Assembly: GCA_973895155.1 (NCBI GenBank)
Contig: OZ316892.1
Location: 12,154,238 to 12,218,237, forward strand
Direction of reading: 5' to 3'
Source of the DNA: Marsupella aquatica
Lineage: Eukaryota > Plantae > Marchantiophyta
DNA: 64,000 nucleotides
Positions 10,887 through 64,000 of the stretch are shown piece by piece (position 1 is the stretch's first letter; each line of letters begins with the position of its first letter). The notes below the pieces were generated by a model, which was not told the DNA's origin, made no database searches, and was given only the letters and a program-made list of their open reading frames with translations. A program made the position numbers and the translations under genes.

Positions 10887-11375
10887 TATAAATCCCCTTT
10901 ATTGACCCCCACCCCCAAGTTGTATCCAAACCGACTCACCCTTGACATATAAACCCCCCTAAACCCCCTTTAGTGGTGACCCCCCACACCCTTCACATAT
11001 AACCGGCCCACCCTTGAGACGTAAACCCCCCCTAAACCCACTATGGAGTTTATGAGACATTAGGGCATTTAGACATTTATTGAGTTTGTACGTGTTCAAT
11101 ATAGCGGGACGTAAAGTCCCCCCATATGGCCATTATCAAATTAAAGTTGACAACTAAACCCCACAACCATCATGTGTGAGAGTGTTCACCCTTTCACAAA
11201 CTAGGGTACGTGGAAACTTTTGATAGTCTTATCCTAAACCAAAAAGCACTCACAGTCTTTTGTAGTGTTCATGTGAACCGGTGCAATGGTTTTGAGTCAT
11301 TTGAAGTTGCAAAAAAGGACTTAGTGGCCTTAGTCCCATAAGGTTTGGTCTAAATTGCCCCGGTTTCTACTAGTG
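10887..11375. mobile_element. Terminal remnant of CACTA element B with right TIR
   Basis: Ends CCCCGGTTTCTACTAGTG; its reverse complement CACTAGTAGAAACCGGGG is identical over 18 nt to the TIR at 51434. Confidence 0.8.
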
Positions 11376-17447: not shown

Positions 17448-17477
17448 CCCGGTGTAATGTAAAACTGTACCGACAAT

Positions 17478-37303: not shown

Positions 37304-37497
37304 CTCTTGTCTTGGGGACTAGACTAAATGCTACCATATGGAATCCTCAGCGGGAAGTTCTAGACAATCACCAAACCAGGTCTCCCCCTAAAAACCACAA
37401 GGGTTAACTAAGGGTTAACTAGAACTAAGCCGTAGCCTAACAGGAATGAGTAATCCATATACAAAGAGTCACACATTGCTAAATAACTCTACTTGCA

Positions 37498-40400
37498 CTA
37501 CAACTGCAAAACCTGCAAAGTAGCACGGTGTCTTGAGAAACTCTCCAAAGGAATCACTTTGGTAAAGGCATCAGCAGGATTGAGCTTTCCATCAATCTTG
37601 ACTAGCTCAAAAGTTTTATCAGACACTGCTTGCCTGATAAAATGGTACCTGATATCAATGTGCTTCACCCTGCTATCCATCACCTGGTTAGCAGCCAAGT
37701 GAAGAGCACTCTGACTATCACAGTTTAGAGTCATTTTTCCATGCTCTAAACCCATCTCCGCGATCAACTTATCCAACCAAATTGCTTCCTTTGTAGCTTC
37801 TGCTGCTGCAACATACTCTGCTTCTGTAGTAGACTGAGATATGCACTTCTGCAAGGTAGATTTCCAACTGATACATCCTCCTCCAAGAGTGTATACAAAC
37901 CCAGTTGTAGATCTCCTTGTATCCAGATAGCTTCCATAGTCAGAATCTACATAGCCAACTAACGTTCTATTTGATCTGTTATTAAATAGTAATCCATAGT
38001 CCTGTGTTCCCTTCACATACCTGAGAATCCATTTCACAGCTTCCCAATGTACCTTCCCTGGATTTGACATGAATCTGCTAACCTTGCCCATCGCTAGGGC
38101 CAAGTCAGGCCTAGTACAAGTCATCAAATACATCAGACTGCCTACTGCCTTCTCATAAGGAATCTTAGCCATTAGACCTTTCTCCACAACATCCGTAGGA
38201 GAGAAAGCCGATGATAACTTGAAATGTGAAGCTAAAGGAATACTCACTGGCTTACAGCTCTCCATGTTGAATCGTGCAAGTACTTTCCTCGCATACTGGC
38301 CTTGACTCAAGCACAACTGTCCAGTCTCAGAGTTCCTAAAAATCTCCATCCCTAAGATCCTCTTGGCCTTACCAAGATCCTTCATCTTGAATTCAACGCT
38401 CAATTTCGCCTTGAGACTGTCAACCTCAGATTGATCTTTAGCCACAATTAGCATGTCATCCACATAGATCACCAGAATGATGAAACCAAATACATCATTC
38501 TTGACTGATTTTGTATACACACAAGGATCATACACCATCCTTGTAAAACCTTGAGCAAGCATGAAATCATCAAACCGCTTGTTCCACTGTCTGGGAGACT
38601 GCTTCAATCCATACAAGGATTTGAGCAATCTGCAAACTAAGTTCTCTTGGCCCTTCTTCATAAAGCCTAGTGGCTGTCTCATGAAGATCATCTCTTCCAA
38701 GTTGCCATAGAGAAAAGCAGTAACAACATCCACCTGATCCATCACCAGATTAAAAAACACAACAAGCTGACACAAGATCCGAATTGTGGAATACTTAGCC
38801 ACCGGTACGTGAAAAGACCTCATTGTAATCCACTCCTTTCTCCTGAGTGAACCCCTTGGCAACAAGCCTTGCCTTGTAGATCTTATCTCCACCCTCTGAA
38901 GGACTGTCCTTCAACTTGTAAATCCACTTGCTGTCCACCACTTGTTGACCTCTTGGAAGCTCCACCAGCTCCCATGTCTTGTTGTCACTCAAAGATTGCA
39001 ATTCCCTCTACATTGCTGCATTCCACTCATGCTTCTGCTCTGAAGCACAAGCCTCACTATACGAAGAAGGCTCTCTTTCTTCCAAGATCAAAGCCATATC
39101 ATCTTCATCAGGTGCAATGTCAATATCATCTAGCTTAGATGAGTCTGCCCATTGACCATACCTGGTAGGAGCTCTAGTAGAACGATTGGAAGTTCTTCTA
39201 GTAGATGACTCTAGCTGATCTGCTGCTGCTGCTGGCTGAATTTGAGGTACCCCAGCAACAATCTGCTCCTCTTGTTCCATCATAGGAACCAGCTCCAAGC
39301 CCGGAGCTTCTCCATCTCTCCTGTCATGAACTGCATCATGACTAATCTCCCCCTCAACCTGGTCCGGGATGGGAGATTTCCCCTTGTCAGTATGGGAGTC
39401 CTGAGAACTCTCCCCCTCCTTTGATGATCTGGATTCATTAAAGGACACATCTCTACTGACAATTAGTTTACAGGTTACTGGATCCCATAACCTATAACCC
39501 TTAACACCTTTCTGATAGCCAAGGAAAATGCACTTCTTGGACTTGGACTCCAGCTTGGATCGAAGTTGGGAAGGTGTAAGCACATAAGCATCACATCCAA
39601 AAATCCTCAGATGTGAGTAATCTGCTGGACGCCCGTACCTCATTTCAAATGGCGTCTTGAATCCAATAGAACTGGATGGAGAAAAATTTACCAAATAAGC
39701 TGCAGTGTTGACAGCTTCAGCCCAAAACTCATGTGGTAAGCATGATTGACTCAACATACTCCTCGAGCGATCCAATAGTGTTCGGTTGAGTCTCTCAGAA
39801 ACACCATTCTGTTGAGGAGTATAGCTTGTTGTGAGATGGCGGGTAATCCCCTGCTCCTTACAATACGTTCCAAATTCACCGGAACTGTATTCACCGCCGT
39901 TATCCAATCGAAGATATCTCACCTTATTACCAGTCTGATTTTCAACTTGGGCTTTCCACTCCTTAAAAGTGGCAAAAACATCAGACTTATTGTGTAGAAA
40001 GTATATCCACACATACCTTGAGTAATTGTCAATGAACGTGACATAGTATAACCGTCCAGAATGTGAGGGAGTAGGGGCGGGACCCCACACATCACTATGT
40101 ACATACTCAAGTACCTCCTTGCTGGTGTGAGTTCCAACTCCGAAGGGTTTCCTGTGCTGCTTCCCTAGCACACAGTGCTCACAAAATTCTAACTTACAAG
40201 ATTGCAAATTAGAAAGTAATCCTTTCTTCTGAAGAATAACCAAACCTTTTTCACTCATGTGGCCCAAACGGAAGTGCCACAGCCGGGCCGTCTCCTCATG
40301 AGATAAGGTTACATTGGCTTCATCATAGACTACACTGCCCTCCATAACGTATAGATTGCAATGTCTCTTTCCCTTCAATACAACTTTAGTACCAGTTGAA

Positions 40401-41773
40401 ACCTGAAGGACACCATTAGCAGAACTCCACTGATGGCCATTTGCCTCTAAAACTCCAAGTGAAATGAGATTTTTCATCATGTTGGGAATATGTCTCACAT
40501 TCCTCAATGTTCTCACAGCACCATCAAACATCTGAAATCTTACAGATCCAAGTCCAACAACTTGACATGGGATTCCATTTCCCATCAACACTGACCCGTT
40601 GGAAACCGTGTAAGAACTGAAATAATCTCTTCTAGAGCAAATGTGAAAAGTACATGCACTATCTAGAATCCAGTCATCACTACCTGGATTTGACACTACG
40701 TTGAGAGCATAACCTTGACATCACAATATGTCATCATCATCGAGTAAATCTACCTCATGCGAGCTCGATGCCGCGTTAGCAGAGGCAGTAGGGACCTTTA
40801 CTCGACAATCCCTTTTCATGTGGCCAGGCTTGCCACAATTCCAACATGCAAAAGGCTTTCTCTCTTGCGATTTCCCTCTGGATTTAGATCTCCCCCGTGA
40901 TGTAGATCTAAACCTATTTTGTCTATTCGTGCGTTGCGCTGCTCTTCCCCATTCACATTGAGCGCAGTGCCAGAAGAAGATGATGTTTGTGATTGACCCA
41001 ACTTCTTCTGAGCATCATCAGACAGTAATGAGCTCACCACCTCATTATACGAAATGGACTTCAGATCTCTGTACAAGAGCACCTATTTCAAGCCCTGATA
41101 AGACGACGGTAAGGAGCTTAGCAGAAGCAAGGCCTTATCCTCATCTTCAACTCCTTTTTCTAAGTTTGACAAATCCACCGCTAGACTGTCAAACTCATCC
41201 AGGTGATCCTGTATCTTGCTCCCTTCCTTGAGCCTGCGGCTCATCAAGAGAGACTTCTTGTACAGCCGGTCTGACGCATCTTCCCGGTAGTATTTCTCTC
41301 TTAGAGCCTTGAACAGTGACGTGCAATTCGCATAATCATCCAATTGCTTGATGATGTGCGGCTTGAGATATAGCATCACTGCATTGACAGCAATCACCTG
41401 CTCCTGTCTCCACTGCTTCTCTGAGATCTCCTCTTCTCCATCATACTGCTCTCGCGTAGAGAGCAGATGAGCTAAGCCCATGGCCCGAAGGACACCCTTC
41501 ACTTGCTTCTCCCACAGCAAGTAATCAGTACGACCATCGTACTTCTCCACCTCAAACTCACTCCTCCAAATCTAGCCATCTCCCTCTTCTTTCCAACTAC
41601 CGACAGCTCTGGTAGTAACACAGCTTCCTCCACTGCACGTCGCACCGGTGATCATATCGGTGTCACTAGTTCCTCCTCAAACGGTAGCAGCTCCTCAGAC
41701 TCTCCGTCTGACCGTCGCGATCCTGAAGCTCCACCGATGCCAATTCTTCCAGTATCCTCCGAGTCACTCATAT
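37498..41773 (-). pseudogene. Copia gag-pol polyprotein with stops and frameshifts
   Basis: gag EKYDGRTDY; PR WILDSACTFH; IN HSDVWGP..YYVTFIDNYSR..QNGVSERLNRT; RT LLKSLYGLKQSPR, YVDDML; RH SQSTTEAEY, KHIDIRYHF. In-frame TAGs at 41083 and 39008; frameshifts near 40950 and 38810. Confidence 0.95.
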
Positions 41774-43439
41774 GAAACAATCACAAAAAAATGTCTTTTT
41801 TCGAAACTTCTCACAAAACTCAAAACTCAACACCGCCGCGTAGCCCACGAAGCTAGGAGTCCAATACTGAAAGCCGAAATCAAAATCAAAATTCGACAGA
41901 AAAGTTATTCAAATTTCGGTCGGGGTGGGTAAAACCTTGGGAAACTCCCCTGTTTTGACCACCTCGGAGAATACCCAGTATAACCCGTCGTTGGAATTGC
42001 GATGTGATCGGTGCGCCGCGATGCTAACTCCAGTGGCAACGTCCTCACCGAAAAAGAACCAAAAAAGTTACCGTTCGGCGGACAGAATCTTTGTCGAACG
42101 GCTGAAAAACAGCTCTTTGTTTTTTGGGAATATTCCCGCACAGTATAGCAGGTCTCACAGGGGGCCGTTCCCCCTGTCGGAGCGGTTAAAACGGAGGGTC
42201 ACAGGGCCCAGGACAGCCAATAGAAGAGTCAGCAAGAAAGACAAAAAATTGGCCTTGAAAAGGGGGTGTAAAGGCCCTTTGGCAAAAATACGCCTTAAAA
42301 GCACGACGCGAGGCGGGCCAGGCAGAGTACAGGGATACGGGTGGGGGTAAACACGGGCGGGAAGGGAGGAACGACGGAGCCGCGTACAGGCGGTAGCCGC
42401 CGTGTATAGGCAGAGCTGGGCTGGGGGTCGCGAGTACGTCGTCGCGAGGCAGCGGCCGGCCGTGAGGGAGTTACAAAGGGCGAGGGCCTGTATACGGGCT
42501 CACTTAGGGCCGAGGGGGGCTAAATGCGGCCAGCAGCAGCTGCAAACGCACCGGTCGGCGCTGCGCTGCGCCGTGTATTCAGGGTGCACCGGGGTTTGCA
42601 AAGGTAGGGGGGCGCGGGCCTAGCAGGGGCGTCCAGCGAGCGGGGAGGGGGGGGAAACAAATACACAGGGGGAGGAGTCGGGGCCCAAGTGTGTGTATAC
42701 ACCTCGTATACACACACAGGGACCAAACCCCCTTTAAACGCCAAAAATGACCCCCCCAAGCAAAAATCAGTCACACACCTTAATTGCCGCTGATTTAAAC
42801 GAGAAAAGTGAATGCCGCCAAAGGGATATGTAGCCGAAGTGCACCGACACAGTCTGCAGCTCCAGCAGAGTAAATTATTTCCGCCGCGTCGCCTTCACTC
42901 CGCGTCAAGTACCAATCCGGGCTCAAAACGACCGCCTCGCCGTGATCAAACCGTAGAGCCGTGGCACTTCGCGTCTCTCCCAACAAGTCGGACGTCACAA
43001 AGGGAAACCCGTTTCAGATGAGAACAAGCTCCATAGCTTGTGAAAAAACCTGAACGTCTCCTTCACTCGTCACGACGCACTCGGTAACAACTCGGCAGCA
43101 ATCCAGCTACCAAAACGACCAGCTCGCTTCAACCTTCAACTTGAGCTATAATGTGTGATCCCTCCCGTACCGCACAGCTCACTCCGTTGAAAAATGCAAA
43201 CTCTGGTCTCTCCCCCGAAAACCCGTCGAACACGAATAAAACCTGAACGACGCAAACTTTGATTCCTCCGCACCACAGATACCGATCAGCGAGTTCTAAC
43301 CACCGTTAGAAAGCCCTCTCACTAACCTATCCGCTCAGCCACACACATTCGAGTTTCATGCGACAAAACTCTGAATGTGTCACCGACAATGAACGCTGGA
43401 AAAACCTGTCACGAAAAAACCTCGTCACCTCCCAGGCAT

Positions 43440-43451
43440 GCTCTGATACCA
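43440..43451 (-). other. Primer binding site (initiator tRNA-Met)
   Basis: TGGTATCAGAGC on the minus strand, 2 nt inside the 5' LTR. Confidence 0.95.
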
Positions 43452-43453
43452 CT

Positions 43454-43797
43454 TGTTGAGCATAGACGACATTCGCAACGGCAAGCCCATGAACCATCCA
43501 ACGCACAATAGTCGACACAGAGAGATACGTGGTTCACCTCCACATGAGGCTACGTCCACGGGAACACACAAGAGCTTTACTGCACTCTAGGCCGACCGGC
43601 CATACCAAGCATCCACAGCACAAGCTCTTCCTATCTCTCAACTAGCTCCGTAACAATGAGCCTAAGTTCCACCAGGGTCTGGCATCAGCCCTGGCTATAT
43701 GCACAACAGCACTACCGCTAACATTAGCTAAGTCCTAACCCGAGTTAGCCTAACTATAGTTAGGTCATGAGTCACAAGACTAGAGCAATATCTAACA
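43454..43797 (-). repeat. 5' LTR
   Basis: Direct repeat of 36947-37290. Confidence 0.97.
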
Positions 43798-44503
43798 TGC
43801 ATGTCGACCTTTGGCTCGTGTCCGTTGTGGCCACAATGATGGTTTGGTGCCGGATCACGAGATTTGGGTAGGATGTGCTCAATTTCCTCCGTTATTGAGG
43901 TTAAATTGACAGGTGCTTTTGTATCATAATTGTGCTACACGAGGCTCGCGTAGGATGTCATAATCAACTTATGACTTGCAAATCCCGGATCTTATCACAG
44001 ACACCCATATCACACGGCATGTACTAATTGTCGGGTTGAGGACTGTGGGAGAACAATAGGCGAGGTTGGAGTTGGTTGGTTCCATTCACTTTCCGCACGA
44101 GGCTCGTGTAGGCCAAACTACTCAGCTCTAGGATCATTATGACCTTGGAAAGTGAAAGGTGTGTACTTGTACTGAATGTCACTTTCACTGCAATGGCGCG
44201 CATGTCAACCTATGGCTCGGGTCCGTTGTGGCCACAATGATGGTGTGGTGCCGGGTCACGGGTTTTAGTATCATAATTGTGCCATACATGGCTCGCGTAG
44301 GATGTCATAATGAACTTATGACTTGCAAATCCTGGATCTCATCACACACACCTTTATTCGAGAGGCTTATTTCTCTCCTTCAAGTTATGCTTTGTGATGA
44401 ACTTCTGGCTCAGTCTCCAACATCTCTCTGATCAAATCTTCCTTTTCCCAATTGAGCGTTTGACAACCATTTTGGATCGTGGTGATTTTCCTTAACTTTC
44501 ATA

Positions 44504-48090: not shown

Positions 48091-48432
48091 TCAAACAAAT
48101 GTGTTGGGCTTGGTGGCCTTGTAAGTCGTCTTTAGCTTTCGCGATGGAGGTTGAATCTTGCGGTACGTCAAGGGGAACTTGATCTTTGAATCATGGAACT
48201 GCTTGGTACTTTCTCGCTTGCACAGAGAGACAGGAACTGTTGTAGTCTTGATGATCTGGATGCAAGGGAACCAAACTCTATGACAAGAAGCCATCTCATC
48301 ATACATCTGCTCTACAACGATGTTCAATGTGGTATCACGATATTTCTTGTACATGTTGGGATAACCTGTACGACTCTGATACCTCACCCAGATACCGAAG
48401 TTCTTAATTGTGGTGGGCTTCTTTTCGAAGAT
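48091..48432 (-). pseudogene. RPL18A: 60S ribosomal protein L18a (eL20) last-exon fragment
   Basis: CAG|[24 protein letters not shown]...[10 protein letters not shown]...[13 protein letters not shown]; conserved residues altered (GYH>GYP, YKE>YKK, RHRVR>CHRVW); upstream exons not found. Confidence 0.9.
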
Positions 48433-49440
48433 CTGGTAGACACATTATTCAGCATTTGCTAACTTCGAAACTAGAAGGGTAACACATTAAACAACAGAGA
48501 AACTCACAACATCCTCCTTTGGTCCTTCAGAGTCTGTACTTTGATTATGAAGTTTGACTGAGTTTCTGTTTACTGAAAGAATGTGACTGTGTAAGAGTTC
48601 CGTTTGGCAGTGGATTGGTTGAAGCACTTCATGCTAGTGTGTTGTCTACAGCTCTTCAACCAGCTTTCGTCTTCCTTGTCTTTCACCACTTACGATGACA
48701 TCAATTCAGCTAAGACCATAGAAGGTTCCAAAGCATCTAACTTGTAAAATTGCATTCTGTTACATCAAGGACTAAGGTGTTGGGTGCCAAAGGAGACAAC
48801 ACAACAAACACGCTGAAAAGACTTCAGGACTGGGTTCAACAAGGTAGTGAAGGTGCTTAGAGCCTAGTAAGTATGCATTCTGTATCTTTCTCTGTTGATG
48901 TGAGCTTGTGCATAATGGGAGTTGTAGTTGGCAAGAGTTCCAAATATGAATAGATCCAGAAGTATGTGATCATGTACTTGCTCTATAAAGTTCTGAAGAT
49001 ATAAGCATTTTCTGTTAGACCAGGCAACTTGGGAGTTGGTAAGTGTCACCTGCATCTGAGGGGCTACACCGGGGGCATCAGTGGAGGTTCACTTGCACAA
49101 CACGACAACCAGTGAATTTTCTCTCTGCTGCAACCTGCAAGGTGAGACTTTCGGTCTTTCTGGATGAAAAAACAGGATTTTAATATGATTGATATACATG
49201 TCCGTCGAGAATATGGGTTTATCACCAAGCTCTTTGTCTTAGGAAACTCATAAACTCAGAATCAAATATGTACTATGCACGTTTCATGCTATGTGTATAC
49301 TATGACCTGTAGTTGGAACCAAGACAATGAGTGAGAACTGATTAGTTTAGGTGGTTGCTGTTGGCGAGGCAAGTCGACCTCCTGCTCACCTTGCTCATCA
49401 AAGGACGTGAACAGAGGACATCACAACGAAAGCAACACTT

Positions 49441-49890
49441 ATGGTGAGGACCCGCAACGCTGAACATGTGCGACTTGCACGCAAGGCAGAGATGTTGCGC
49501 CTTGAGTATGTCAGACTTGGGATCCTTCCAGCCCAGTCTGCATGGTACTTTGAGTACCCTGTTGTTTCCAGGAACAACTACAGCCGGCCTCTACCTGCTT
49601 CAGTACCCTTCCCGACATCCTTGGTATTTGTGTCTCTTGTACATGACCCGCCACAAATTAGGTGCCAAGGGTGTGTACACAGTTGCCTATATGACTGTCC
49701 TGCCTGTAGGGCTTCTGGCCCAGAATTGGATGACCGTTCTCTTGGATGCCGATTTTTGCACAGAGCACAATGTATCATCTGGAACCACTCACCATCCTGC
49801 AGTGTGCCTGGTGATGTCACTTGTCCTGCCCTCCCAGACCCCACCACCGGTGACTTTGGTGTCTACACATGTTTGGATCACATGCTCTAG
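49441..49890 (+). CDS. Cys/His-rich hypothetical protein, copy 2
   Basis: Near-identical protein to 61576-62025; C..C...C..C and H...C motifs. Confidence 0.65.
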   Translation: MVRTRNAEHVRLARKAEMLRLEYVRLGILPAQSAWYFEYPVVSRNNYSRPLPASVPFPTSLVFVSLVHDPPQIRCQGCVHSCLYDCPACRASGPELDDRSLGCRFLHRAQCIIWNHSPSCSVPGDVTCPALPDPTTGDFGVYTCLDHML

Positions 49891-50662
49891 AGGACCACTT
49901 GTCACACCGCATGCACAGACCAGATACCATTGACCTATAGCTTAACACTCTGACTTCAACACAGAGGATATTTACTTAAAATTTTGATGTATGAGCAATT
50001 TTGGGTCCAGGGTTTAGGGTCAACAGTACATAACTTATATCCTATTATGCCTGCACTAAGCAAAATATCCTAATTTAAGAGGCTAGCAAACTCGCATAAA
50101 AGTCTCTATTGAAAGACTGCTTTCATGACTGCTTTAACCTGGTGAACATTGCAACGTTCAATGAATTAATGGGCCATGTGATAACCTGTAAAATGTGATT
50201 TATGCATCACTTATTTGTCTCAGCCACTATCATAGCCTATTTAGGATGTATAAATTTCAACCCTTATGACACTGCTTCATACCAATCCTCTTCGAAGAAT
50301 GCGCGTTTTACATGTCACGACTATTGTATGTGATTCAAATGCATGAAATATTGTTGCAGATCTCCTTTGGTGAATCATAGCCACAATTAAAATTGAGGTG
50401 TTGGTGGAGCAATTGTATTAGGGGATCAGGTTTGTGTGTGGGCTCAACATACCAAAAGTATGTCTGCTCTGCATCCTTGTGTGGCCATTCCAATTCATTG
50501 CAGTAGCAAATGCCTTTGTACCTTAAATGCTAAATATATTTTACTTTCTGTGCAGTCTGCTAAATTGTAGAGTCTATCTAAATGCCTTTGTACCTTAAAT
50601 GCTAAATATATATTACTTTCTGTGCAGTCTGCTAAACTGTAGAGTCTATCTCATGCGCAGGC

Positions 50663-51343
50663 ATGGCATGACCTAAAATTCAAGCCAAAAAGCATGTGAC
50701 AGAGGTGAGAAACACAGGTGTACTTGGGGCAGATGCTACTAACTTCTCTGCAAGTCAGATTTTCTAGAAGGCAGCTCATTGTTGTGCCATTTGTGACGAT
50801 GGTGGGGGCCTGGTCATTTGTGAGGGCCCTTGCATGAGGCATTTCCACCTCAACCCGGAGTCTGACCTTGCTGCAGAAAACAACTGTCCAGGGGTGGGCC
50901 TCCCGTCAACACACCAGGGAGACTGGATGTGCACTGATTGTTTGGAGAAGCAGGCTAAGTGTGCACAGTGTGGGAAGTTGGGGTCCTATGAGGGCTCTGT
51001 TGATGCTGCAGCAAATGTTAGGAAATGTCCAGACCGTTTTTGTGTGAGATTTTTCTGTTTTGAGTGTTTGCCTGCTCATGCCACAGCTTGCCCACTTCAT
51101 AGGTGCAAGGCATGTGGTGAGCATGATCATGAGTACTGGACTGACATAGTCCACTGTGCTAGGTGTCCCACCATGTGGCACTATCATTGCCTGAAAGATC
51201 GTCAAGCAGAGGGTTATGCTTGTGATAGAGAAATCTATGATCACTCTGCACATGGTGTTGATCGATGGATATTTTATTGTCATCGCCATGCCATTGATCC
51301 TACCTCGCGCACTCCTGTGAGAGATCACATATCTTGGCTGTGA
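50663..51343 (+). pseudogene. EDM2-like composite PHD protein, copy 2 (two premature stops)
   Basis: In frame with the 226-aa copy but CGA>TGA at codon 3 and CAG>TAG at codon 35. Confidence 0.85.
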
Positions 51344-52261
51344 AGCTGAACATTGTACATGCACAGTGCACCTGATGTGGATGTACTATTTTTTGAGATT
51401 GCAGAGATTCCAATTTTGAAAAGGAGTTGGGTACACTAGTAGAAACCGGGGGGTATTTAGACCCCATTAAACGACTATTCAGTACCGTATAGGACTTGGA
51501 AACGACTGGGAAGGACTCCAGTCCTTTATAGGACTGCGAGTCGTATGTTTTGTTACTATAATCAACTGAGTCCTTTATAGAACTGGTTTATAAGTCGTTT
51601 AATAGACTGGATTTTCAGTCTATTTTAGTCTTTGTGTGGGTAGCTTTGGTGAGTCGTTTTCAGTCTTTTATGGGCTGCGATGGTGAGTCGTTGGGAACGA
51701 CTAAAAAGGTTATGGAGGGTAGTCTTTAAATATACTTTGTGGGGTATGTATAAGTCTTTCATGTCAACTGGATATGAGTGATGAAGACCCCACTATACTA
51801 CTTGGAATGAACCCACTCTTGTGCACAAATAACATATTGCATTCATGTTTTATTGTGTACTTGGAATGAACTCACTCTATAAGTTCACCATTCATTATGT
51901 TAACATTAGAATACATAGTTTCAGAAAGCCATCTTCTATACCATGTACACTAATATGAATTCACAGATTCAAACTTCATAGACTACAAAGAAGGTCACAA
52001 AGTATTCCTCTATACCATACACACTAATACTGAAATGATACAAAACAGATTCAAGTATCATAGACAATCACCATAGAGCCATAGTTTGACATCAATCACT
52101 TGTTTCATACATACAGAATTCAGAAATATCAATGTCACACACAACGGCTCCTTCATCCTCTTTACCAAATGGAAAAATTGGTACAGATATGTCTTGGATC
52201 TTTCCAAGGCAATGTCAAAATGTGACACAATTCACATGATTCTATCTACACTTGCATTCAG

Positions 52262-53950
52262 TCACTGCAGACTAACACACTCTGATGGCCAAAGCACAAG
52301 AGATCCTACTGCATCTGCAATTATTTCCTGAGGTGGATCATCGTCTCTATTCGGAAATGGCAAATTACAATCAGATACAATCACTGTAGTCAACAACACT
52401 ACTACATGGTCATCCGGGACCACTTTGCCATGGAATTTTGCATGGTCCGGTCGCAAAATGCCTGTACCCACACATACCTGCGAGTCATCCTCCCATGATA
52501 GAAGATTATGGACTGGCTCTGCTGTGGCTATCACCTCCACCTTACCCTGGCTGTTTTTCTTGGCTTTCCTGGGTGGCTTATACATGACATTATTCATACC
52601 TTGGTTGCGAGTCATGACTTTGGCACGAGTGTTTTGTGCTGGTGATCGAGAATTGGCTACACTCTTCTTCAAAGAATCTGCATCCATATTTGACACTTCT
52701 GATTGTGTAGCAGGATTTCCCTGCGACATCATCTCAGTATCTGCCAACATTGTACTTGCTTCAATTGAAGCATCTACAATCTTACTTGCATCCAATGTTG
52801 CTCCCAAGTTTTGACGTCGCTTCACCTTGCTCCCACTTGGTTGAGAGTCTGTCAACTCTGCATCAACTACAATTCAGTGTCATGTCCAACATAAGTCAAT
52901 CACTCATCACATGTGCTAAATGTACATGTCACCAACCACAAAGTTGTCACTATCTCCTTACCATTATGAACAGCCTTCTTCCCCTTCTTTGCCATTGCCA
53001 TATGCTCCATGTCTGCTTCTGTTGATCAATAAACACACCACAATATTCAAGTTGAATCTATTAACCACTGAATTGTTTCTCAACATTCATATAGAGGAAT
53101 TTAAAGCATCAGCTTACCTGATACCTCCTTGGCTATGGTCACTGAGGCACTGGGCACATCTTCTTCATTATTGCTCTTTGAATCACCTGATACATCAATC
53201 ATGATGTCACTTCAGATCCCAGTTCATCCAACCAGTTCTTACAGAAAAGATTACCTCCAACCGGCTTAAGCTTCACAAAACTCCATGCACTTTTCAAATG
53301 TAATGTACTGGATCATAGCAGGTTACCTGTCTCAGCAACCTTCTTGCCCTTTTGCTTACTGATTACAGGGTCCTTCTCTGCCTCCACTCTTCCTGCATTC
53401 AAACCATTCACTCAATTCATGAAAACTTACTTCTAACATTTGAACATAGGACACAATGAACAATGGGCCGGTGTCATTTCCATACCTGTGTCAGATTTGC
53501 CAATTCCCTTTTTTGTTAACAAGGGCACACTTTGTACAATGTTGCCCTCATTGTTTGGTTGGGAACCACCCAATTTTTCAATCACAAGCTTGAAATTAGA
53601 TTCCACTGATGCAAGAAGGTTTGCTACAGATGCCTCCACAATATCCAAACGATCAGCCAATTTACTTTCCACTCGAGGGAGTCCACACTCTAATGACTTC
53701 AACCGTTCACACATCTCTGTGAGAGTTGTAACAGTTCACTGTCATAACACAACTTACATATCTCAGATAACTGTCCCCAAGAACTGGTTGCTTACTTCCT
53801 ACTACATTTCTTTCTGATGCTCAAGGCCAAATAGTCACAGAACATACAGAATTACAACATAATCACCTGTTTGGAAGTTACACTTGTCACCTCACTCCTT
53901 TGTTTCATGAACTCCTCTCTCACTTCTTGTGCTGATGGTTCTTCACCTAT
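52262..53950 (-). CDS. CACTA ORF2/TnpA-like multi-exon gene
   Basis: Coiled-coil exon 53433-53714 and terminal exon with En/Spm TnpA C-terminal-type motif VGTGIL..FHGKVVPDDHVVVLL..LPFP..IADAVGSLVLWP. Confidence 0.7.
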
Positions 53951-54041
53951 CCTAAACATCATTCCAGGCAGCAATTCCCGTTCTGTGACTCTGTGTAGGT
54001 AGTCATCCTCAACCTCATACTTGCCAACCGCCAGCTGTTGC

Positions 54042-57000
54042 CTATTGCAAATCATCAACCTCATCATATTCCATTTGCCCAGGTTCATCATATGTCTCTC
54101 TCAATGTTAAGGGGATGTAGTCAGTCCCTGCCCGAGTTGGAAGTACAGTCTCATGACTAGGATGCTCGAATGCAGCATGGTCATCCAAACTGAACTCTAC
54201 TTTACTTCCATCCATCCGCCTGTTCCGTGCTTGGCTATGGCATACCACCCTCCAGCCATGTGACTCCTCCACATCTGCAAAGAAAGCCTGTTCAACTTGG
54301 CTAGGGAAAACAAAAGGCTCAGACCATTCTGGTACTCTGGACCTAAAATTGGCCAACAAGAACCCATCATGATCACGCTTCATGGTGGCCCTTGGTCTCT
54401 GCCACTCTGATTTCACCCATGATCCCTTCATCAATATCACTGGGACACTTGTGTTACCATAATTCAACACCCAAATGTTGGTCAACTCCCCCACGTAACC
54501 CATCTTCATCCACCCCCTCTGTTCTTCAGAGGTTCTCTGCTCAAACACAGAAATCAAACCACAATCATATGATACACAATGGTCACCCTGCTCATCCCTC
54601 ACTCGATAATGATTTCCATAAGCTCTCATCCGTTTGTAGGTCAGAATAGACAATCGTGGTGGCACAGATAGAAGATACAAATCCTTCTCCATATCTGGGT
54701 GATGTCTACTATGCTCTCGAATTGTCACCCGAATCCACTGCTCGAACTGTGGGAAGGGATCCTGCTGCCTAGAGTGTGCAGCTTTTTGCATATCATATTC
54801 CCTGCAATATGAGGTACAGGCATAGTTAGGTCTAAACAACACATGACAACCTAAGATCACCCTTGGAACAGACAAGAAGCATCACAACAAAGGCAAGTCA
54901 ATTCAATCACTCACCTCCACCATGGTTGGATAGGCTCTGTGTTTGCCAGCACATATGAATGAGCCTTGTCTCGAATCGCAACAGGCAGCTGAACAGCACG
55001 TCCCACACCTTCAACAACCTCGCCACTCACTCCATCATCTTCACCAGATTTCCAAACTCTTGTCATAGCTTCACCAGACCCAGCCATGTACTCTGTTAGG
55101 AATCCCAACGTCTCATCCTTAATGTACCCCAATGCCATGGAAGCCTCTGGCCTGTAGTATGTTCTCACATGACCTTTCAACAACTTCATGTATCGCTCCA
55201 TAGGGTACATCCATCTGGTACTGACTGGCCCATACTGCCCTAGCTCTTCTACCACATGGATTAGGAGATGAGTCATAACATCAAAGAAAGCAGGGGGGAA
55301 GTATATCTCCAAGTCACAGAGGACATAAGCAGCATCCTGCTTCAACTGCTCCAATCCTTGGGGATCCCACACTTTCACACATATATGGCGAAATACATTG
55401 CACAGTCGAAGAATGACATTACGGACTGGTTTCTGCATGAGACCTCTGAGGCATAGGGGCAGAATGTGCTGCATCAACACATGGTAGTCATGTGTTTTCA
55501 TACTGCCAAGTTTATTCTTTGTAATATGCTTCTTGAAGGCACCAGCATAGCCAGAGGGCACTTTCAGACAGCTCAATCTATACAAGAATGTCTTCCATTC
55601 ATCCTGTGTGCACACATAGGGAGCTTGGAACTTGAGAAGTACATTGGGATTGCTTGCATGGGGCTTCAACCAAAGGTGAGGGCGAATCCCCTTCTGTTGC
55701 ATATCAGCTCGAACTGCTCCTGTATCTTTCTCACCCGACAAGAACTTCAGCAAGCTCTCACAAATATTTTTCTCAATGTGCATGACGTCCACATTGTGTT
55801 TGCTGGGCTCGAATTCCTGCACTCCACAAAGCAAAGAATTCAACAACAGAAACACTAATTAACCACATAGGAGGATTGTAACCAACATCAATCCACCATT
55901 GCTCCAATCTAAAATTGCAATCATACAGGGGCTGGAGGCTAAGTACATTACCCTCCAGTACTCCAACTCCAAGTCCATCAAGGTCTGTCTTTTCACACCG
56001 TGTTTCACCACTGGATCCTCAGGTTCTCGATCAGTGGCACTTCTCTTGTCCCAATCAGCCTTCCTGGCTGCCCACCTCAGGACTTGCTCTCTGGTGATCC
56101 TCTGTGGTGGGCCACGAAGCTCTGTTTTGTTGTTGAAGTGTGCAATTTGAGACCGTGTGTGCCTGTAAGGATGATCAACAGGCAGATACCTTCTATGCCC
56201 CTGAAATTTCATACTGTGCAGGGCATGCGACCACTCACTTGTCACATTTTTCCCACATGGTGTGCACCCCACATAGCCCTTTGTCACTCGTCCAGATATG
56301 ATGCCATGGCCTGGGTAATCTGCTATATCCAGCAAACAAATTGCATGCAGTCTAAAGGGGCTGGGTCGAAGAAGCCCCTTCAGAACATCATGGGTTAACA
56401 CCCCTTCTATCCACAAAGTCTTCCACTCTTCCACTGCTGGAGCCAACATGATATCTATGAATTGCTCGGTCACAGAAGCTGGTCTAGGGATTAACAGCAC
56501 CATCATGACAAAAAACCTCTTTGTAGTCATCCATGGGGGAAGGTTGTAATTTAGCAGCGTAACCGGCCAACATGAATAACGGTTGTTTTTGTCTCCAAAT
56601 GGGTTTACTCCATCCAGTGATAGACCAAATCGAAAGTTCCGCTTCTCTGCAGCAAACTGTGGCCACCTCTCATCAACAAATTTCCAATGGTTGGAATCTC
56701 CAATGTGACGCTGCAGGCCATCACTACTCTTGTTATCAGGAGTCCATGTCATCAGCTTGGAAATGGCAGGGCATCTAAACAGACGTTGTAGTCTAGGAAT
56801 GAGAGGAAAATGACGAAGAACCTTGGCAGGGTGTGTACATTTCCCTACATTCTTGTACCTGTGCTTACCACAATGAGGGCATGTCAATTTATCTGCATGC
56901 TCTTTGCGAAAGAGAACACACCCATCAGGGCATGCGTCAATAGACACATAGTTCAGCCCAAGGTTAGACATCAATTTCCTAGCCTCGTACATATTTTTTG

Positions 57001-57742
57001 GAATTGAATTACCATCTGGTAACATATTTCGGCGCAGGAAGGTCAACAACTCTGTCACAAATATATTGGGAACATTGTGATTGCCACAGATGTTCAACAA
57101 CAACACGACAAAACCCAGCTTGGAGCAGTTCGACCCCTCGTAGATAGGAATGCAAGCTTCTTTGATGTGTTTTGGGCCCCCAAACACCCACTCCCTCTCT
57201 GCTGCACCTTCCCCAATGTCAAAGTCAGGTTCAGCTTGGCTGTCGCCAATGTGTGGCTGCGGTTCATTGTCCTCTTCTGATTCCACTGTGTCGTAAAAAG
57301 CATCAAGGTCTTCAAAAATCTCTTGAACCATTCTTGGGACATCCATCCCACCGTCCTCAGTGACTGCCTCTACATCTCCATCTTGGTCATCCACGTTCTC
57401 ATGTTGGACCCCAGGACCATCCTCTGCACAGTCTATGTCCTGCTCTACGTAGTCTCTACGCCTAGCTGTATTAGAATCCACAAAGTCAGCTCTCCACTCT
57501 TCATCAGAGGAGTCTTCTTCTGCTGGTACATTCCAAACCCTCCACCGAGGGTGCCTTTCATGCCGCAGCAGGTGAAGGTGCACAGTGTTCAAACTCAACG
57601 ACTTGAATCCTTGGCACTGTGTGCATGGGCATCTCATCCTCCTACTCCTACCTTGGGCGGCCCGGGCTTGTTCACGCATCCACAATTTAGAATCATGATG
57701 CCTAATCCTAAATGGGTTGTGAAGAGGCAACCTTGGAGCCAT
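54042..57742 (-). CDS. CACTA transposase TnpD (3 exons: 57742-55952, 55816-54915, 54801-54042)
   Basis: CPCTQC transposase-associated domain, IDACPDGCVLF, LSLDGVNPF, ADYPG, DVMHIEKN, FPPAFFDVMTHLLIH, RWMYPMERYM, EPFVFPSQVEQAFF; canonical GT-AG introns keep the frame; no internal stop seen. Confidence 0.93.
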
Positions 57743-58068
57743 CACTATACACACGCACTCAGCACCCTGTCATTTTATTATGCAAGTGAAAAATACACTT
57801 CCTGTTAAGGATTTCACCCCCGACTGTACTTGCCAAAATACGTAACGTTCCAAAAAAACAAAAAAACAAAAAATATAGGTGCCTGAGTCATGTACCTATT
57901 CTCAAGTGAATGAGACAAAATTCCTAAATGTTTGAGGGTGTCAACTCCTCCGCTGTCCTCACATGTACTGCCTCTGCACGTACATCCATGACCATATCAG
58001 AGTCCAATCATGTATAGTCATAGACACAGGTGCCAGGTGCGAGACCGGTGTGAGATGTCCTCATCTTA

Positions 58069-58638
58069 CTACCACATCAAATACGGATACCAATCCTGTT
58101 GTCGATGCCACTCAGCCCTGAGGTACTCAGGCATGTACATTAAGTCATCAAGGTCTAAACCCTGCTCATGCCATGGTGGTCTTCGATCCGTGCCTACAAG
58201 CAGTGGCAGCAGTGCCCTCCATGGTGCACATGTTGCTACCAAGTCCCTCCACTGGGTACTAATTAGTCTATATTTGCAGATATCTTGTGCGCCAGACACC
58301 ACAAGAACCCTCGGCCAGACATGTGTAAGAACTATATCATCTGCCAAATCAGGCAACAAGGAACCACCTACAGCATCGTGCTTGTCTAACTCATCTGCTA
58401 AAAAGTAAATGTCCTCTTCCGACTGTGCATCCTCATTCACCACAGCATTCACAACACATCCAAGGTCTGCAGGCATTATCTCGGATGGAGCTACACTCTG
58501 TCTGGTTGCCAATCCACACAAGTAAGCCCAAGCAATAGCCATGCACGATGCAACCCGTAGGAGGACCCTACATAGGGCCTGACGGTCTGGAAGAGGCAGC
58601 ATACCCACCAAAGTCTTCAGCCAAACAGAGCCCAGCAA
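58069..58638 (-). CDS. F-box-like protein
   Basis: SLLPDLADDIVLTHVWPRV...KYRLISTQWRDLV fits the plant F-box pattern LLPGLPDD....C..R....R.VS..WR.LV; start uncertain. Confidence 0.6.
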   Translation of the reverse strand: MLGSVWLKTLVGMLPLPDRQALCRVLLRVASCMAIAWAYLCGLATRQSVAPSEIMPADLGCVVNAVVNEDAQSEEDIYFLADELDKHDAVGGSLLPDLADDIVLTHVWPRVLVVSGAQDICKYRLISTQWRDLVATCAPWRALLPLLVGTDRRPPWHEQGLDLDDLMYMPEYLRAEWHRQQDWYPYLMW

Positions 58639-58778
58639 GTAGATTCACAGTCACACCCCACGCAGCAGGAAACAACAATCACTTCAACTGCGACCAACCA
58701 TGACAAGATGAGTTAGTTCAAGGATCACATTTATTACAAAATTGTGATTTATACAAAAATATGAGGGACTCCTACTCC

Positions 58779-59642
58779 TCACTCTCTCCCACCTTTGCTA
58801 AGCATACATCTCCGCTGAATCTTGGAGGGCCAGGCCTCAAAAATATCAAAGTCCCAAGCATTCTGTCGCTTCCCTCTAGCTGCTGATTCCAGAAGCCAAT
58901 CAGGGGAAAGCACCCAAAGATTGTTGTTCATGACAAAATCACGCACTGTTGTCTTAAAGAATTTTCTGCATATTTTCATGTATGACAGACCTACAACATG
59001 AGTGGAGGTTTCTGTTAGACTCTCCTCCACTGTCCCACCTAGCTCAACAACTATAGACTTGTACAATCTGCACTTAGTCTCCCCAATTCCTTCTTCTGCA
59101 AATACCACACTGAACCCCTTCATAATGGTATTTCTCTCCTTGCCATGCTCATTCAATATAGCATCTGCACGCATAGGATGGTGTCCTATGTTGACAACAG
59201 GTCCATATTGGACAGAAGCAAAGTTGGGTTTCTCTGCCACTGCTTCATAGGCTTCCTTTTCAGCCAAAGCCTCTGCAGTGGCCTCCTCACTCTCCCACAA
59301 CTCATATTGCTCAGTACTCTGTACACACCTATGTTTAACAGAATCGGTCAGCCAAGAGACTTCAACTACTTTTAGACCTTGGTTGGTAATGGCAGAATCA
59401 ATGAAGGACCATGACCACTTGTTCATCACATCCAGCCATGTCCCCGCAACAACATGTGTAGTCTGTGGAGTGATGTCCTTGACTTCAGTCCCATGGAACT
59501 CTGAGAATCGTTTTTGTACGATTGGCCAACTCACTTGGGTGAACCCATAGTGGCCAGGAATCAAAATGGCTTTGATTCCAGCCAACAGAGGCGGGTGGTC
59601 AACCTTTGTACGTTTCCTAGAGGCCATGTACACACGGGCCAC
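58779..59642 (-). CDS. Tandem BRCT-domain protein (287 aa)
   Basis: Two repeats, each with G.V....T...THVV and V...WL..S, resembling the BRCT of plant DNA polymerase lambda. Confidence 0.8.
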   Translation of the reverse strand: MARVYMASRKRTKVDHPPLLAGIKAILIPGHYGFTQVSWPIVQKRFSEFHGTEVKDITPQTTHVVAGTWLDVMNKWSWSFIDSAITNQGLKVVEVSWLTDSVKHRCVQSTEQYELWESEEATAEALAEKEAYEAVAEKPNFASVQYGPVVNIGHHPMRADAILNEHGKERNTIMKGFSVVFAEEGIGETKCRLYKSIVVELGGTVEESLTETSTHVVGLSYMKICRKFFKTTVRDFVMNNNLWVLSPDWLLESAARGKRQNAWDFDIFEAWPSKIQRRCMLSKGGRE

Positions 59643-60225
59643 CTAATCACTGCAGACCGGAAGATAATGCGTTCACCTGATAATCGGAGGGCCCTTAAAA
59701 TGCTGCGTTTATAACTTGGTCCAGTCCAGTCGTCTGGTGAGTCTCTGCTCCGATTCCAAATGGGAGAAATATTGGGACAAACGTACTAGACACCTGCAAG
59801 CATGCACCTCATAGTTTGAATATGTGCCTTCACAATATTGAAGGTGACAAGTGCAATTGTTTTGTGATGCCACATACAGATGTTGTAAATGGGCAGACAT
59901 TCAATGACAATACAAAATGTTGGTACACTTTAAGGGAATTTTCGCAAATTAAATAGCCTTGTAACTTATATGCTCATAATGAGAAGTCCTGATTTAATTT
60001 AAGCAGTGTCATGTAAGTCGTGATCAAAATGATTGCAGAGTAAAAAAGGTTCCTAGAAGGCTTAAGGGGAGTTTTTGAAGGCATGTACCCAGGAACAAGT
60101 AATGAACTTAGGGTACTTGTTGCCTAAGCATCCTCTCCTACAGAGGTCCTTCTTCTCAAAATTGGAATGTCTGCAATCTCCAAGGTATCCACATCAGGTG
60201 CACTATGCATGTACATTATTCAGGT

Positions 60226-60906
60226 TCAAAGCCAAGAAATGTGATCTCTCATGGGAGTGTGCAAAGTAGGATCTATGGCATGGCGATGACAATAGAAGAT
60301 CCATCGATCAACACCATGTGCAGAGTGATCATAGATGTGTCTGTCACAAGCATAGCCTTCTGCTTGACGCTCCTTCAAACAATGAAAGTGCCACATGGTG
60401 GGACACCTAACACAGTGGACTATGTCCACCCAGAAATCTTCATCGTGCTGACCACATGCCTTGCACTTATGAAGTGGGCAAGCTGTGGCAAGATCGGGCA
60501 AACATGAAAAACAAAAGAACCTCACACAATATCTGTCAGGGCATTTCCTAACAAGTGGTGGAGCATCAACAGAGCCCTCATAAGACCCCAACTTCCCACA
60601 CTGTGCACACTTAGCCTGCTTCTCCAAACAATCAGTGCACATCCAGCCTCCCTGGTGTGCTGACGGGAGGCCCACCCCTGGACAGTTGTTTTCTGCAGCA
60701 AGGTCAGACTCCGGGTTGAGGTGGAAATGCCTCATGCAAGGGCCCTCACATATGGCTAAGCCACCACCATCGTCACAAATGGCACAACAATGAGCTGCCT
60801 TCTGGAAAATCTGACTTGCGGAGAAGTTACTACCATCTGGCCCAACTACACCTGTGTTGCTCACCTCTATCCCCCGCTTCTTGGCTCGGATTTTAGGGCG
60901 TGCCAT
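60226..60906 (-). CDS. Stand-alone EDM2-type composite PHD finger protein (226 aa)
   Basis: CAICDDGG....CEGPCMRHFH, C..C....C..C..LGS, CPLHKCKAC, CVRCP..WH..CL, FYCHRHAIDP...TPMRDH: the ordered motifs of the EDM2 PHD module; basic N-terminus. Confidence 0.85.
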   Translation of the reverse strand: MARPKIRAKKRGIEVSNTGVVGPDGSNFSASQIFQKAAHCCAICDDGGGLAICEGPCMRHFHLNPESDLAAENNCPGVGLPSAHQGGWMCTDCLEKQAKCAQCGKLGSYEGSVDAPPLVRKCPDRYCVRFFCFSCLPDLATACPLHKCKACGQHDEDFWVDIVHCVRCPTMWHFHCLKERQAEGYACDRHIYDHSAHGVDRWIFYCHRHAIDPTLHTPMRDHISWL

Positions 60907-61575
60907 GCCTACGCATGAGACAGATAGTACAATTTAGCAGAGTGCACAGACAATACAATTTAGTGCAGTGTACAAAAAGTACAGTGTAGCATATGGACTA
61001 GAGTGGCAATTGCTACTGCAATGAAATGTTCACACACATGTGCAGAGTAGACATACTTTTTGGTTTGTTGAGCCCACACTAAAAACTGATCCCCTCGTAC
61101 AATAGCTCCACCTACACCTCAATTTTGTGGCTATGATTCACCAAAGGAGATCTGCAACAAGATTTAATGCATTTGAATCACATATAACAGTCGTGACATG
61201 TAAAACAGGCATTTTTTGAACAGGATTGGTATCAAGCAGTGTGATCAGGGTTGTAATTTATACATCCTAAATAGGCTATGATAGTGAATGAGACAAATAA
61301 GTTAGGCATAAATCACTTTTTCCAGGTTATCACATGGCCCATTAATTCCAGTCTTTGAAAGGAGACTTTTAAGTGAGCTTGCTAGCCTCTTAAATTAGGA
61401 TATTGTACTTAGTGCAGCCATAATAGGATAAGTTATGTACTGTTGACCGTAAACCCTGGACCCAAAATTGCTCATAATTCAAAATCTTAAGTAAATATCC
61501 TCTCTGTTCAAGTCAAAGTGTTAAGTTATAGGTCAATGGTCTCTGGTCTGTGCATGCGGTGTGACAAGTGGTCTT

Positions 61576-62025
61576 CTACAGCGTGTGATCCAAACATGTG
61601 TAGACACCAAAGTGACCGGTGGTGGGGTCTGGGAGGGCAGGACAAGTGACATCGCCAGGCACACTGCAGGATGGCGAGTGGTTCCAGATGATACATTGTG
61701 CTCTGTGAAAAAACCGACATCCAAGAGAACGGTCATCCAACTCTAGGCCAGAAGCCCTACAGGCAGGACAGTCATACTGGCAACTGTGCACACACCCTTG
61801 GGCCCTAATTTGTGGCGGGTCATGTACGAGAGACAAAAATACCAAGGATGTTGGGAAGGGTGGAGAAGCAGGTACAGGGCGGCTGTAGTTATTCCTGGCA
61901 ACAATTGGGTACTCAAAGTACCATGCAGACTGGGCTGGAAGGATCCCAAGTCTGACATACTCAAGGCGCAACATCTCTGCCTTGCGTGCAAGCCGCACAT
62001 GTTCAGCATTGCGGGTCCTCACCAT
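61576..62025 (-). CDS. Cys/His-rich hypothetical protein, copy 1 (149 aa from the conserved ATG)
   Basis: Open and conserved in both diverged copies. Confidence 0.65.
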   Translation of the reverse strand: MVRTRNAEHVRLARKAEMLRLEYVRLGILPAQSAWYFEYPIVARNNYSRPVPASPPFPTSLVFLSLVHDPPQIRAQGCVHSCQYDCPACRASGLELDDRSLGCRFFHRAQCIIWNHSPSCSVPGDVTCPALPDPTTGHFGVYTCLDHTL

Positions 62026-64000
62026 AAGTGTTGCTTTTGTGGAGTGTCGTGTGTTCACGTCCTCTGATAAGCACCTTCGATCAGCAAGGTGAGCAGGAGC
62101 TGTACTTGCCTCACCAACAACAACCAACCTTAAATTATCAGTTCCCACTCACTGTGTCATTCCATTGGTTCCAGCTAGGGGTCACAATGTAAACATAGCA
62201 TGAAACACTCTTAATCAACTTGCTTACAAACTACAATATCCAGAAAGAGTGAAAGTCTCACCCTCCAGTGAGCAGCAGAGAGGTAGTTCACTGGATGTGT
62301 TGATGTGCAGTTAAACCTCCACTATTGCTTACTTCTGGTGTATGCTGCTCAGTCGAAGACATATTAGTAGCAGCAAATTGCAAATAATGGCCATAAGCAA
62401 ACCGTGAGAGTTTGCAGAATGCTACGACAACTATTCATCCATCACAACAGTGCTCCACAGGAATGAAACCAAGCAAAATTTGGTGACCTCGGCCAATGAC
62501 AAGGCCAATGTAGTTCACAATCCTTGACCGATCAGGATATGGATTGGAATTACAATTAGTCAGCTCTTCTTCTTTGTTTCCTAACTCTGCGGGAAATGAG
62601 CATGACAAGGGAATTCTCTGAGAAATAGAAGTGCACAGGGAAAATGAAATTGACTCATTGAGCTGCGCAAGATGACCACTACAGCATACTTGGACAGTAG
62701 GTTCCGCAATCCATAAAATCCCCGTCTGACGTATTTAAGCAGTGCAATTTAAGCAGTCAGATGCTACATAGCAATTAAGCACAAAGGCTACTTCATGTCT
62801 GTTTACATAGAATTTTGGATTGAAGTAATGAGAGCTATACATTTAAACTTACGGTGCCAACTCCGTCAGTAGTTGCTGAAAATGGCATGGGAAACACTGG
62901 TATGACAGGAACTCAAGGAAACATTTGCGGCAATGTCTTCACAGGAAAAGAAGAATTGCTAAGTACAGTATTCTTAATAGTAGTTTCGTTCTAATTCTGA
63001 AATCTACACATAGGACGGAAACCCAGGACATTTCTCATGAAAATTGAAGATCCATTCGACAACTCCATGACAGCCTATTCCGCATTGTGTCCGTCCCATG
63101 CAAGCAAGGGGTGTTCAGCCGAGCTTAGTCTAACCACGAATGATTGTTCTGGAAGCAGTTGCGATAATGTTTTGGTAATTTTCTCCTATATCCAACTCAG
63201 TAGCTCACAAACATGGCATTGGACCCATTAAAAAATTATACTTGCCATCATTCTCAACTGTATTACATGGCCCACACTGCTGATGTCCCTGACTCTTAAG
63301 GGAAACTCATCTCCTGGGCCAGCAACATCTCAGATTCTACAAAAATGAGAAACTATGAAGACTTATTGAAGTCATATCCTGTGATTGTAGCATGTATGAT
63401 TTGCTGGGACTACAAGCAGTTCTAGATCCTGCTGCACTTTATATACAACAGCAACCTGAGCTACATGAACTTGTTTTTAATAGACGTGCGTTTGACCACG
63501 GCTACAACTCCAAAACAATCAGTCACCCAATCAAATCATAACAAACCCACCCGCAAGCTGAATGTAGAGGATAGAGATAGAGAAAATCACCGGGGCAATG
63601 AAGTTGGATCACAGGGTGCAAAACTAGTACTCAACAGGGTAAGACCGATCACAGCAAACAAAGCACAGAGCTAGACCAACAAAACTCCAGCAAAGATAGT
63701 GTCATGTCCATTTATTTGTAGGGAATGAAGTCGGATCGCAGAGTGTAAAACCAGTAGGGTAAGACAGATCACAACAAACAAAGCTAACACAACAAGCACA
63801 TAGAGGAACAAAACTCCAGCAAGACATAAATTAGACCTCGCAGCTTTTTGACTAGCAAAGGGAGATAGTCTACGCTTTCCATTGCTGGTCACAGCGCGAC
63901 AGGCAATCAGGATGATGCCATGCCGAGTAGAAGAACAACAAAGCATTCTATAAAAAGCATTGAGGTTGGCGTTATAGTAAAAGTGGTAGTACTTCCAGTA

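Follow-up and report, generated by a model that had tools for sequence, protein, structure and literature searches.

We analysed a window of 64,000 nucleotides from the liverwort Marsupella aquatica (contig OZ316892.1, positions 12,154,238 to 12,218,237 of the forward strand), in which four small genes adjoin the transposase gene TnpD of a CACTA element. The four stop-free open reading frames (ORFs), all encoded on the minus strand, run from Cys-rich through PHD and BRCT to F-box-like and are followed by TnpD (Table 1). An earlier note on this DNA had described them as uninterrupted, co-oriented with TnpD and directly upstream of it, and this arrangement was confirmed. The element is likely an intact-looking plant CACTA transposon in which the four extra genes are carried inside. 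The sequence by itself also points to a land plant as host (CACTA type, Copia elements, an RPL18A fragment and a Streptophyta-type PHD), probably a seedless one, as the relatives included no named protein.

Table 1. Positions of the element, its cassette and the related repeat in the window (aa, amino acids; TIR, terminal inverted repeat)
Feature	Position	Strand	Remarks
CACTA TIR, 3' end of the element	51434..51451	+	CACTAGTAGAAACCGGGG; GTA directly before is the predicted 3-bp target duplication
Subterminal GACT-type repeats, both orientations	51452..51760		motif count per bin
Probable TnpA-like spliced gene	52262..54040	-	stop-free stretches of 62, 100 and 203 aa; downstream of TnpD
TnpD transposase	54042..57742	-	three exons, 57742-55952, 55816-54915, 54801-54042; Pfam and predicted splicing
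Small F-box protein, 177 aa	58069..58602	-	N-terminus variable and hydrophobic; then an acidic stretch, the F-box (aa ~82-130) and a conserved tail of ~45 aa
Twin-BRCT protein, 282 aa	58779..59627	-	basic N-terminus, ~50-aa acidic linker; Pfam and relatives
Stand-alone NSD/EDM2-type multi-PHD protein, 226 aa	60226..60906	-	basic N-terminus; profile and relatives
Cys/His-rich protein, 149 aa	61576..62025	-	ORF; two relatives
Related repeat (copy L), insertion target	49075..51426	+	84% nucleotide identity to the cassette region
Cys-rich gene of copy L	49441-49890	+	second copy, intact
PHD gene of copy L	50663-51343	+	two premature stops, at codons 3 and 35
Oppositely facing end of a further copy in the TIR family of 51434	11358..11375	-	points away from 51434

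Element ends and transposase

Of the features that characterize the CACTA superfamily, the element showed a TIR beginning with CACTA/CACTG, subterminal repeats and an intact TnpD of the Tnp2 family (with predicted splicing). The GACT-type motif occurred in 8 copies in the subterminal bin, which was the sole 500-bp bin of the window with at least three. Contigs from the public runs X1 and X5 tracked the window up to 51433 and then continued into other sequence, representing an empty site, and therefore the element was inserted into a related repeat; the insertion point lies 90 bp past the end of the PHD gene in this outer repeat. Besides the TIR at 51434, no TIR-like site was found in 51300-64000 at four stringencies, and thus none between TnpD and the cassette, where, according to the earlier note, a second TIR would place the four genes outside the element.

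An end at 11375 is identical to the TIR at 51434 in 18/18 bases and faces in the opposite direction. It was ruled out as the partner of 51434; because its orientation faces away from 51434, it belongs to another copy. Adjoining this end, the region 5495-11375 consists of a diverged ~570-bp repeat array, then 83-bp repeats ending at a TIR-like site at 10886, and then the 11375 end itself. This array may give a possible picture of the missing far end of the present element.

Three Pfam domains were detected in TnpD (Transposase_21, DUF4218 and DUF4216, with E = 2e-58, 2e-27 and 1.5e-5, respectively), and its exons join in frame via GT-AG introns at 55951-55817 and 54914-54802 into a predicted protein of 1150 aa, in which the acceptor of the second intron is one of four in-frame candidates. 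With three domains and exons that join in frame, the transposase is as intact-looking as had been proposed. Its ATG at 57742 lies 327 bp downstream of the F-box stop. The stretches of the gene downstream of TnpD had no Pfam match, and its C-terminus may resemble that of TnpA.

The four cassette proteins

Every cassette ORF has unnamed relatives of similar length; those of the PHD, Cys-rich and BRCT proteins all came from Logan contigs, in searches restricted to lengths near that of the query. For the Cys-rich protein, relatives of near-equal length made up 2 of 24 candidates (53-55% identity). No match was found in PDB, Pfam or PHROG, and its structure model (pLDDT 43) was not usable. The first five residues were invariant in 4/4 sequences, and a possible resemblance of this N-terminus to the histone H3 tail is a tentative lead.

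The PHD protein matched three NSD-type PHD families of Pfam, all below the cut-offs; its profile gave NSD2 and NSD3 as the best PDB matches (E = 1.5e-10) and its best Atlas cluster was the Streptophyta NSD-type PHD (0.93, 195 shared features), which is not named EDM2. Relatives of near-equal length (5 of 118 candidates, 217-245 aa) shared 38-82% identity, with Cys/His ligands that are largely invariant, and the first finger resembles PHD1 of AIRE. The proposed label 'EDM2-type PHD' is supported up to the level of a plant NSD-type cluster of atypical PHD fingers. EDM2 would be the plant carrier of this module and may share a C-terminal motif with the cassette protein. The PHD alignment gave zero loci in the metagenome and viral contigs scanned. 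A predicted complex of the PHD and Cys-rich proteins scored 0.00 in a run where alignments were not used, and carries no evidence.

In the BRCT protein, the Pfam BRCT domain was found over two stretches (E = 6e-14) and the two repeats are related to each other (E = 4e-7), which bears out the tandem BRCT of the earlier note. A single relative of near-equal length (62% identity) was obtained from 731 candidates. When the profile was compared with PDB, the matches ranked in the order BRCA1, LIG4 (E = 0.003), PARP4 and Pol lambda (E = 0.014). An origin from Pol lambda, suggested by a possible likeness, is weakly supported. Phosphopeptide-binding tandem BRCTs of the BRCA1 type have a pocket of Ser/Thr-Gly and Thr/Ser-x-Lys in repeat 1 and a short linker; here the pocket residues were not evident by eye in a weak alignment (E = 0.13), and the linker is ~50 aa. 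Loose ends of X1 contigs at 59011 and 59212 encode a second, diverged BRCT gene, as read by eye.

The search with the F-box protein gave 13 matches, 12 of which were 100-190 aa long; P0023, a 651-aa repeat (E = 1e-3), was excluded from the set. Among the 12 short relatives, 11 match F-box or F-box-like, one of the 12 above the cut-off. The top three PDB profile matches were F-box proteins (E = 0.06-0.15), the Atlas clusters were F-box clusters (0.90-0.91), and a fold search with the structure model returned F-box chains in 10 of the top 12 (Z = 3.5-4.0). A conserved acidic motif precedes the F-box, and the ~45-aa tail after it shares 34-56% identity among relatives. The profiles of the relatives, PDB, Atlas and fold matches support at family level what had been proposed, that the window protein is probably a member of the F-box family, its motif and three-helix fold being found at that level.

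Selection could be assessed with copy L, whose PHD gene shares 85% protein identity with that of the cassette despite its stops; at codon 3 of this outer gene, X1 and X5 contigs differ from the window letters. The ratio of nonsynonymous to synonymous substitution rates (dN/dS) between the cassette copy (R) and copy L, computed over three transition weights with shifted frames as control, was 0.25-0.32 for the Cys-rich gene (p = 0.0005-0.003) and 0.31-0.43 for the PHD gene (p = 1e-5 to 0.002), against 0.69-2.2 in shifted frames, none of which was significantly below 1. Both genes are under purifying selection between the copies. Of the claim that two ORFs are conserved in a diverged second copy, the conservation holds, whereas copy L lies outside the TIR and its PHD gene has stops. 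Copies L and R as the long terminal repeats of a single composite element were also considered and ruled out, given the position of copy L beyond the TIR and the presence of an empty site.

A fragment of RPL18A lies in the outer repeat at 48091-48354 on the minus strand (X1 depth ~1400), and reads as a Pack-type capture adjoining the selected Cys-rich and PHD genes. It is very improbable that the four ORFs are likewise passive captured fragments, kept intact through recent amplification. X1 copies are nearly identical (4 differences in a 1644-bp contig), which would suit passive capture, as would the RPL18A fragment and the two stops in the PHD gene of copy L. On the other hand, dN/dS of the Cys-rich and PHD genes is well below 1, at odds with the unselected fragments of Pack-CACTA, and the ORFs recur at full length at 26-62% identity, in one case beside a distant TnpD. 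Passive capture is thus largely refuted for the Cys-rich, PHD and BRCT genes, and the view of the ORFs as stand-alone modules rather than random Pack-type fragments is upheld by dN/dS (for the Cys-rich and PHD genes) and by relatives of the same length.

The ORFs could also be spliced together as exons into one or two larger proteins, perhaps with TnpD as a fusion partner. An AG following pyrimidine-rich sequence was found just 5' of several cassette ATGs, as expected for such exons; however, each ORF has its own stop, the PHD, Cys-rich and BRCT relatives begin and finish at nearly the same positions, and the acceptors are compatible with leader introns, or with alternative splicing of transcripts from a single promoter. 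We consider spliced exons highly unlikely, and infer expression of the cassette as separate or alternatively spliced mRNAs.

Linkage of the cassette to TnpD

In run X1, long near-identical contigs covered the TnpA region, TnpD, F-box and BRCT at depths of 1768-2011, the window-type spacer between the Cys-rich and PHD genes had a depth of 1958, and the outer repeat about 1290-1540; contig depth is not copy number, as the tool itself warns, and the values fit one multi-copy unit. From this similar depth, all four cassette genes likely travel with TnpD. The 5' part of the element seems to vary between copies, and so does the 5' part of the outer repeat, to the left of ~47900. Over 62418-64000, depth fell several-fold in the runs without any TIR there.

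We also searched metagenome contigs for TnpD and obtained 20 loci, three of which had DNA upstream of the TnpD start (~2.3 kb in L001, ~0.8 kb in L016 and ~4.9 kb in L020). L001, the closest of these and intact (TnpD with 46-56% identity to the window TnpD), has a co-oriented intact BRCT ORF of 269 aa that ends 429 bp before TnpD (26% identity, E = 1e-22). The repeats of the two proteins paired in order (E = 5e-15 between the first repeats, E = 2e-15 between the second), and therefore the twin arrangement predates the split. Since an orthologous BRCT gene lies upstream of this distant TnpD, the BRCT-TnpD link is old. That it has persisted while the transposases diverged by about 50% suggests a CACTA clade not described before. 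The concern of the earlier note that the ORFs might evolve neutrally or be unlinked to TnpD elsewhere was answered in part, by purifying selection for the Cys-rich and PHD genes and by linkage for BRCT. L016 and L020 are broken distant copies of TnpD and gave no cassette match; in L001, the TnpD frame extends at 2113-2310 by ~60 aa N-terminally beyond the part matching the window TnpD.

That the four genes are a host cluster merely neighbouring a transposon is the least probable of the alternatives. The far TIR lies outside the window, which would leave room for it, whereas the X1 depth of the genes is like that of TnpD, no TIR lies in between, the cassette is CpG-depleted like TnpD (observed/expected ratio 0.23-0.41) and synteny is seen in L001.

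Several observations count against the reading that we prefer, in which the four genes lie inside the element and likely act as adaptors favouring its spread. As to the element, the far TIR and its target duplication are not in the window, which ends at 64000, no X1 contig spans the whole element, and the mean X1 depth is 506-813 beyond 62418. As to linkage, no F-box gene lies between BRCT and TnpD in L001, and neither a PHD nor a Cys-rich gene in the 874 bp upstream, a stretch too short to judge these two; the four-gene set is thus not fixed. As to the proteins, the searches covered lengths near that of the query, so that fused forms may exist, and relatives P0001-P0022 are proteins without genomic context. 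The window F-box ORF alone matched the Pfam F-box only under the cut-off (E = 0.11), the Z values of its fold matches are beneath the trust range of the tool, Foldseek gave no match with its model, and the runs show losses in this region, of 43 nt upstream of the F-box motif (X2 and X5) and of 122 nt (a minority of X1). The PDB ranking singles out no BRCT donor, and the first PHD finger has none of the acidic residues that precede the first Cys in AIRE, which bears on its mark preference. We put the probability that the cassette consists of selected, element-borne accessory genes at about 0.85. The cassette looks modular, with BRCT as the oldest demonstrated part.

Proposed function and known systems

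A role of the cassette in host manipulation is plausible from the domains that it encodes, and we give slightly better than even odds to a function of the proteins as non-enzymatic adaptors favouring spread of the element. We infer that host genes supplied the domains, which were then pared down to their binding modules. EDM2 is described as binding H3K9me2 and as supporting full-length transcripts through transposon chromatin (available text of PMC7529245 and PMC9292364). By analogy, histone H3 tails on silenced chromatin would be the ligand of the PHD protein, which might tether the transposition complex or, like EDM2 at genes that carry intronic H3K9me2, keep transcripts of the element full-length; help with full-length transcripts would be useful because the element is long, methylated and multi-gene (CpG observed/expected ratio 0.23-0.41). 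AtPol lambda contacts LIG4 and XRCC4 by way of its BRCT domain and is linked to the repair of excision sites (PMC4444747). On this model, the twin BRCT would bring end-joining repair proteins, LIG4/XRCC4-type factors, to cut sites. The F-box protein would form the link between SKP1/SCF and a host protein that is then degraded, its tail selecting a silencing or restriction factor as the substrate, and the Cys-rich protein might be a zinc-binding partner. A small F-box protein with a conserved tail is the form that parasites use to redirect SCF, and polerovirus P0, nanovirus Clink and Agrobacterium VirF are viral and bacterial hijackers of this kind; the window protein has in common with them that it is a small F-box protein of a genetic parasite, and differs in being encoded by a chromosomal DNA transposon. 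In its boldest form, which we offer tentatively, the proposal is of a CACTA lineage with a virus-like modular accessory genome, in which an SCF adaptor would destroy a host silencing factor, a stand-alone EDM2-derived protein would read heterochromatin, an old twin BRCT would recruit end joining, and the invariant N-terminus of the Cys-rich protein might mimic the H3 tail.

The same proteins could instead be decoys, domain-only copies that sequester the partners of EDM2, BRCT proteins and SCF complexes of the host and act as dominant negatives. They are little beyond their binding modules, with no catalytic or EDM2 flanking domains in Pfam and an F-box tail of only ~45 aa; however, this tail is conserved (34-56% identity), which fits a substrate-binding surface, and the duplicated BRCT is retained in L001, so that decoys appear unlikely. 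More doubtful still is a scheme of integration steering, in which the PHD protein picks target chromatin, BRCT and F-box finish or disassemble the complex, and silencing is not opposed. Fusions of PHD and Ulp1 domains with Ginger1 transposases are known (PMC2836005), and the present copy sits 90 bp beyond the PHD gene in the outer repeat, whereas a single insertion in a repeat-dense region reveals no preference. As compared with either scheme, adaptors favouring spread remain our preferred function.

CACTA elements are usually described as TnpD plus TnpA. The window element shares with CACTA/En-Spm the CACTA TIR, subterminal repeats, a Tnp2-family TnpD with DUF4218 and DUF4216 and a probable TnpA-like downstream gene, and differs in adding four intact genes upstream of TnpD. 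The multi-PHD module of NSD type is shared with Arabidopsis EDM2 and animal NSD2-3, whereas the window protein stands alone at 226 aa without their other domains. With Pack-CACTA it has in common host-derived coding DNA adjoining a CACTA end; Pack-CACTA are non-autonomous fragment carriers (PMC6379663, available text), whereas here TnpD is intact and whole ORFs are selected. The Mutator-like VANDAL elements with VANB/VANC and KAONASHI with Ulp1 are likewise DNA transposons, whose several accessory genes come from chromatin or ubiquitin-like-pathway proteins of the host (PMC13547354 and PMC13317346); they belong to another superfamily, and VANC recognises DNA motifs, whereas the modules in the window are PHD, BRCT and F-box, with predicted functions.

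Co-option of host domains by transposons has been described for VANC (from MAIN) and for an NDX-B domain in EN/SPM (PMC13547354), and for Ulp1 in VANDAL (PMC13317346), in the available text of these papers. In Table S6 of a survey of 775 active CACTA clusters, CACTA appears in 0/5 PHD rows, 0/3 F-box rows and 1/3 BRCT rows (a singleton), and mosses and algae supply few clusters in this survey (PMC12973397), which also lists few tested counter-defences of plant transposons (VANC, TnpA and a rice microRNA). In a structural survey of 962 Spm proteins, the main text mentions a variety of accessory domains, among them neither BRCT nor PHD nor F-box (bioRxiv 10.64898/2026.08.24.746577). Our literature search, with Repbase and subscription papers outside its coverage, found no description of this gene combination in CACTA. 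Host-derived accessory genes in plant transposons are thus already known, and what is new is this four-gene set on a CACTA element. The four genes are small and clonable, and would allow direct tests of whether a plant transposon aims the proteasome at host factors, reads heterochromatin and recruits repair; a repair-recruiting module could also matter for transposon-based tools.

Elsewhere in the window, the minus strand of 15404-21600 holds a NIF/FCP1 phosphatase-like ORF (E = 2e-11) co-oriented with a Ulp1 protease (E = 3e-19), and a long charged ORF with no Pfam match, whose end may be ParB-like; this is probably another accessory-rich element. A GC-rich block at 26398-31884 (plus strand) has long ORFs of 803, 267 and 321 aa, of which the first and the last were scanned and gave no convincing Pfam family. 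DUF7869 transposase-like ORFs (E = 4e-30) lie at 34662-35789 on the plus strand, and 36760-44350 is occupied by a Copia-like element with further inserted sequence and with direct repeats at 36946-37290 and 43453-43797 that share 98.6% identity.

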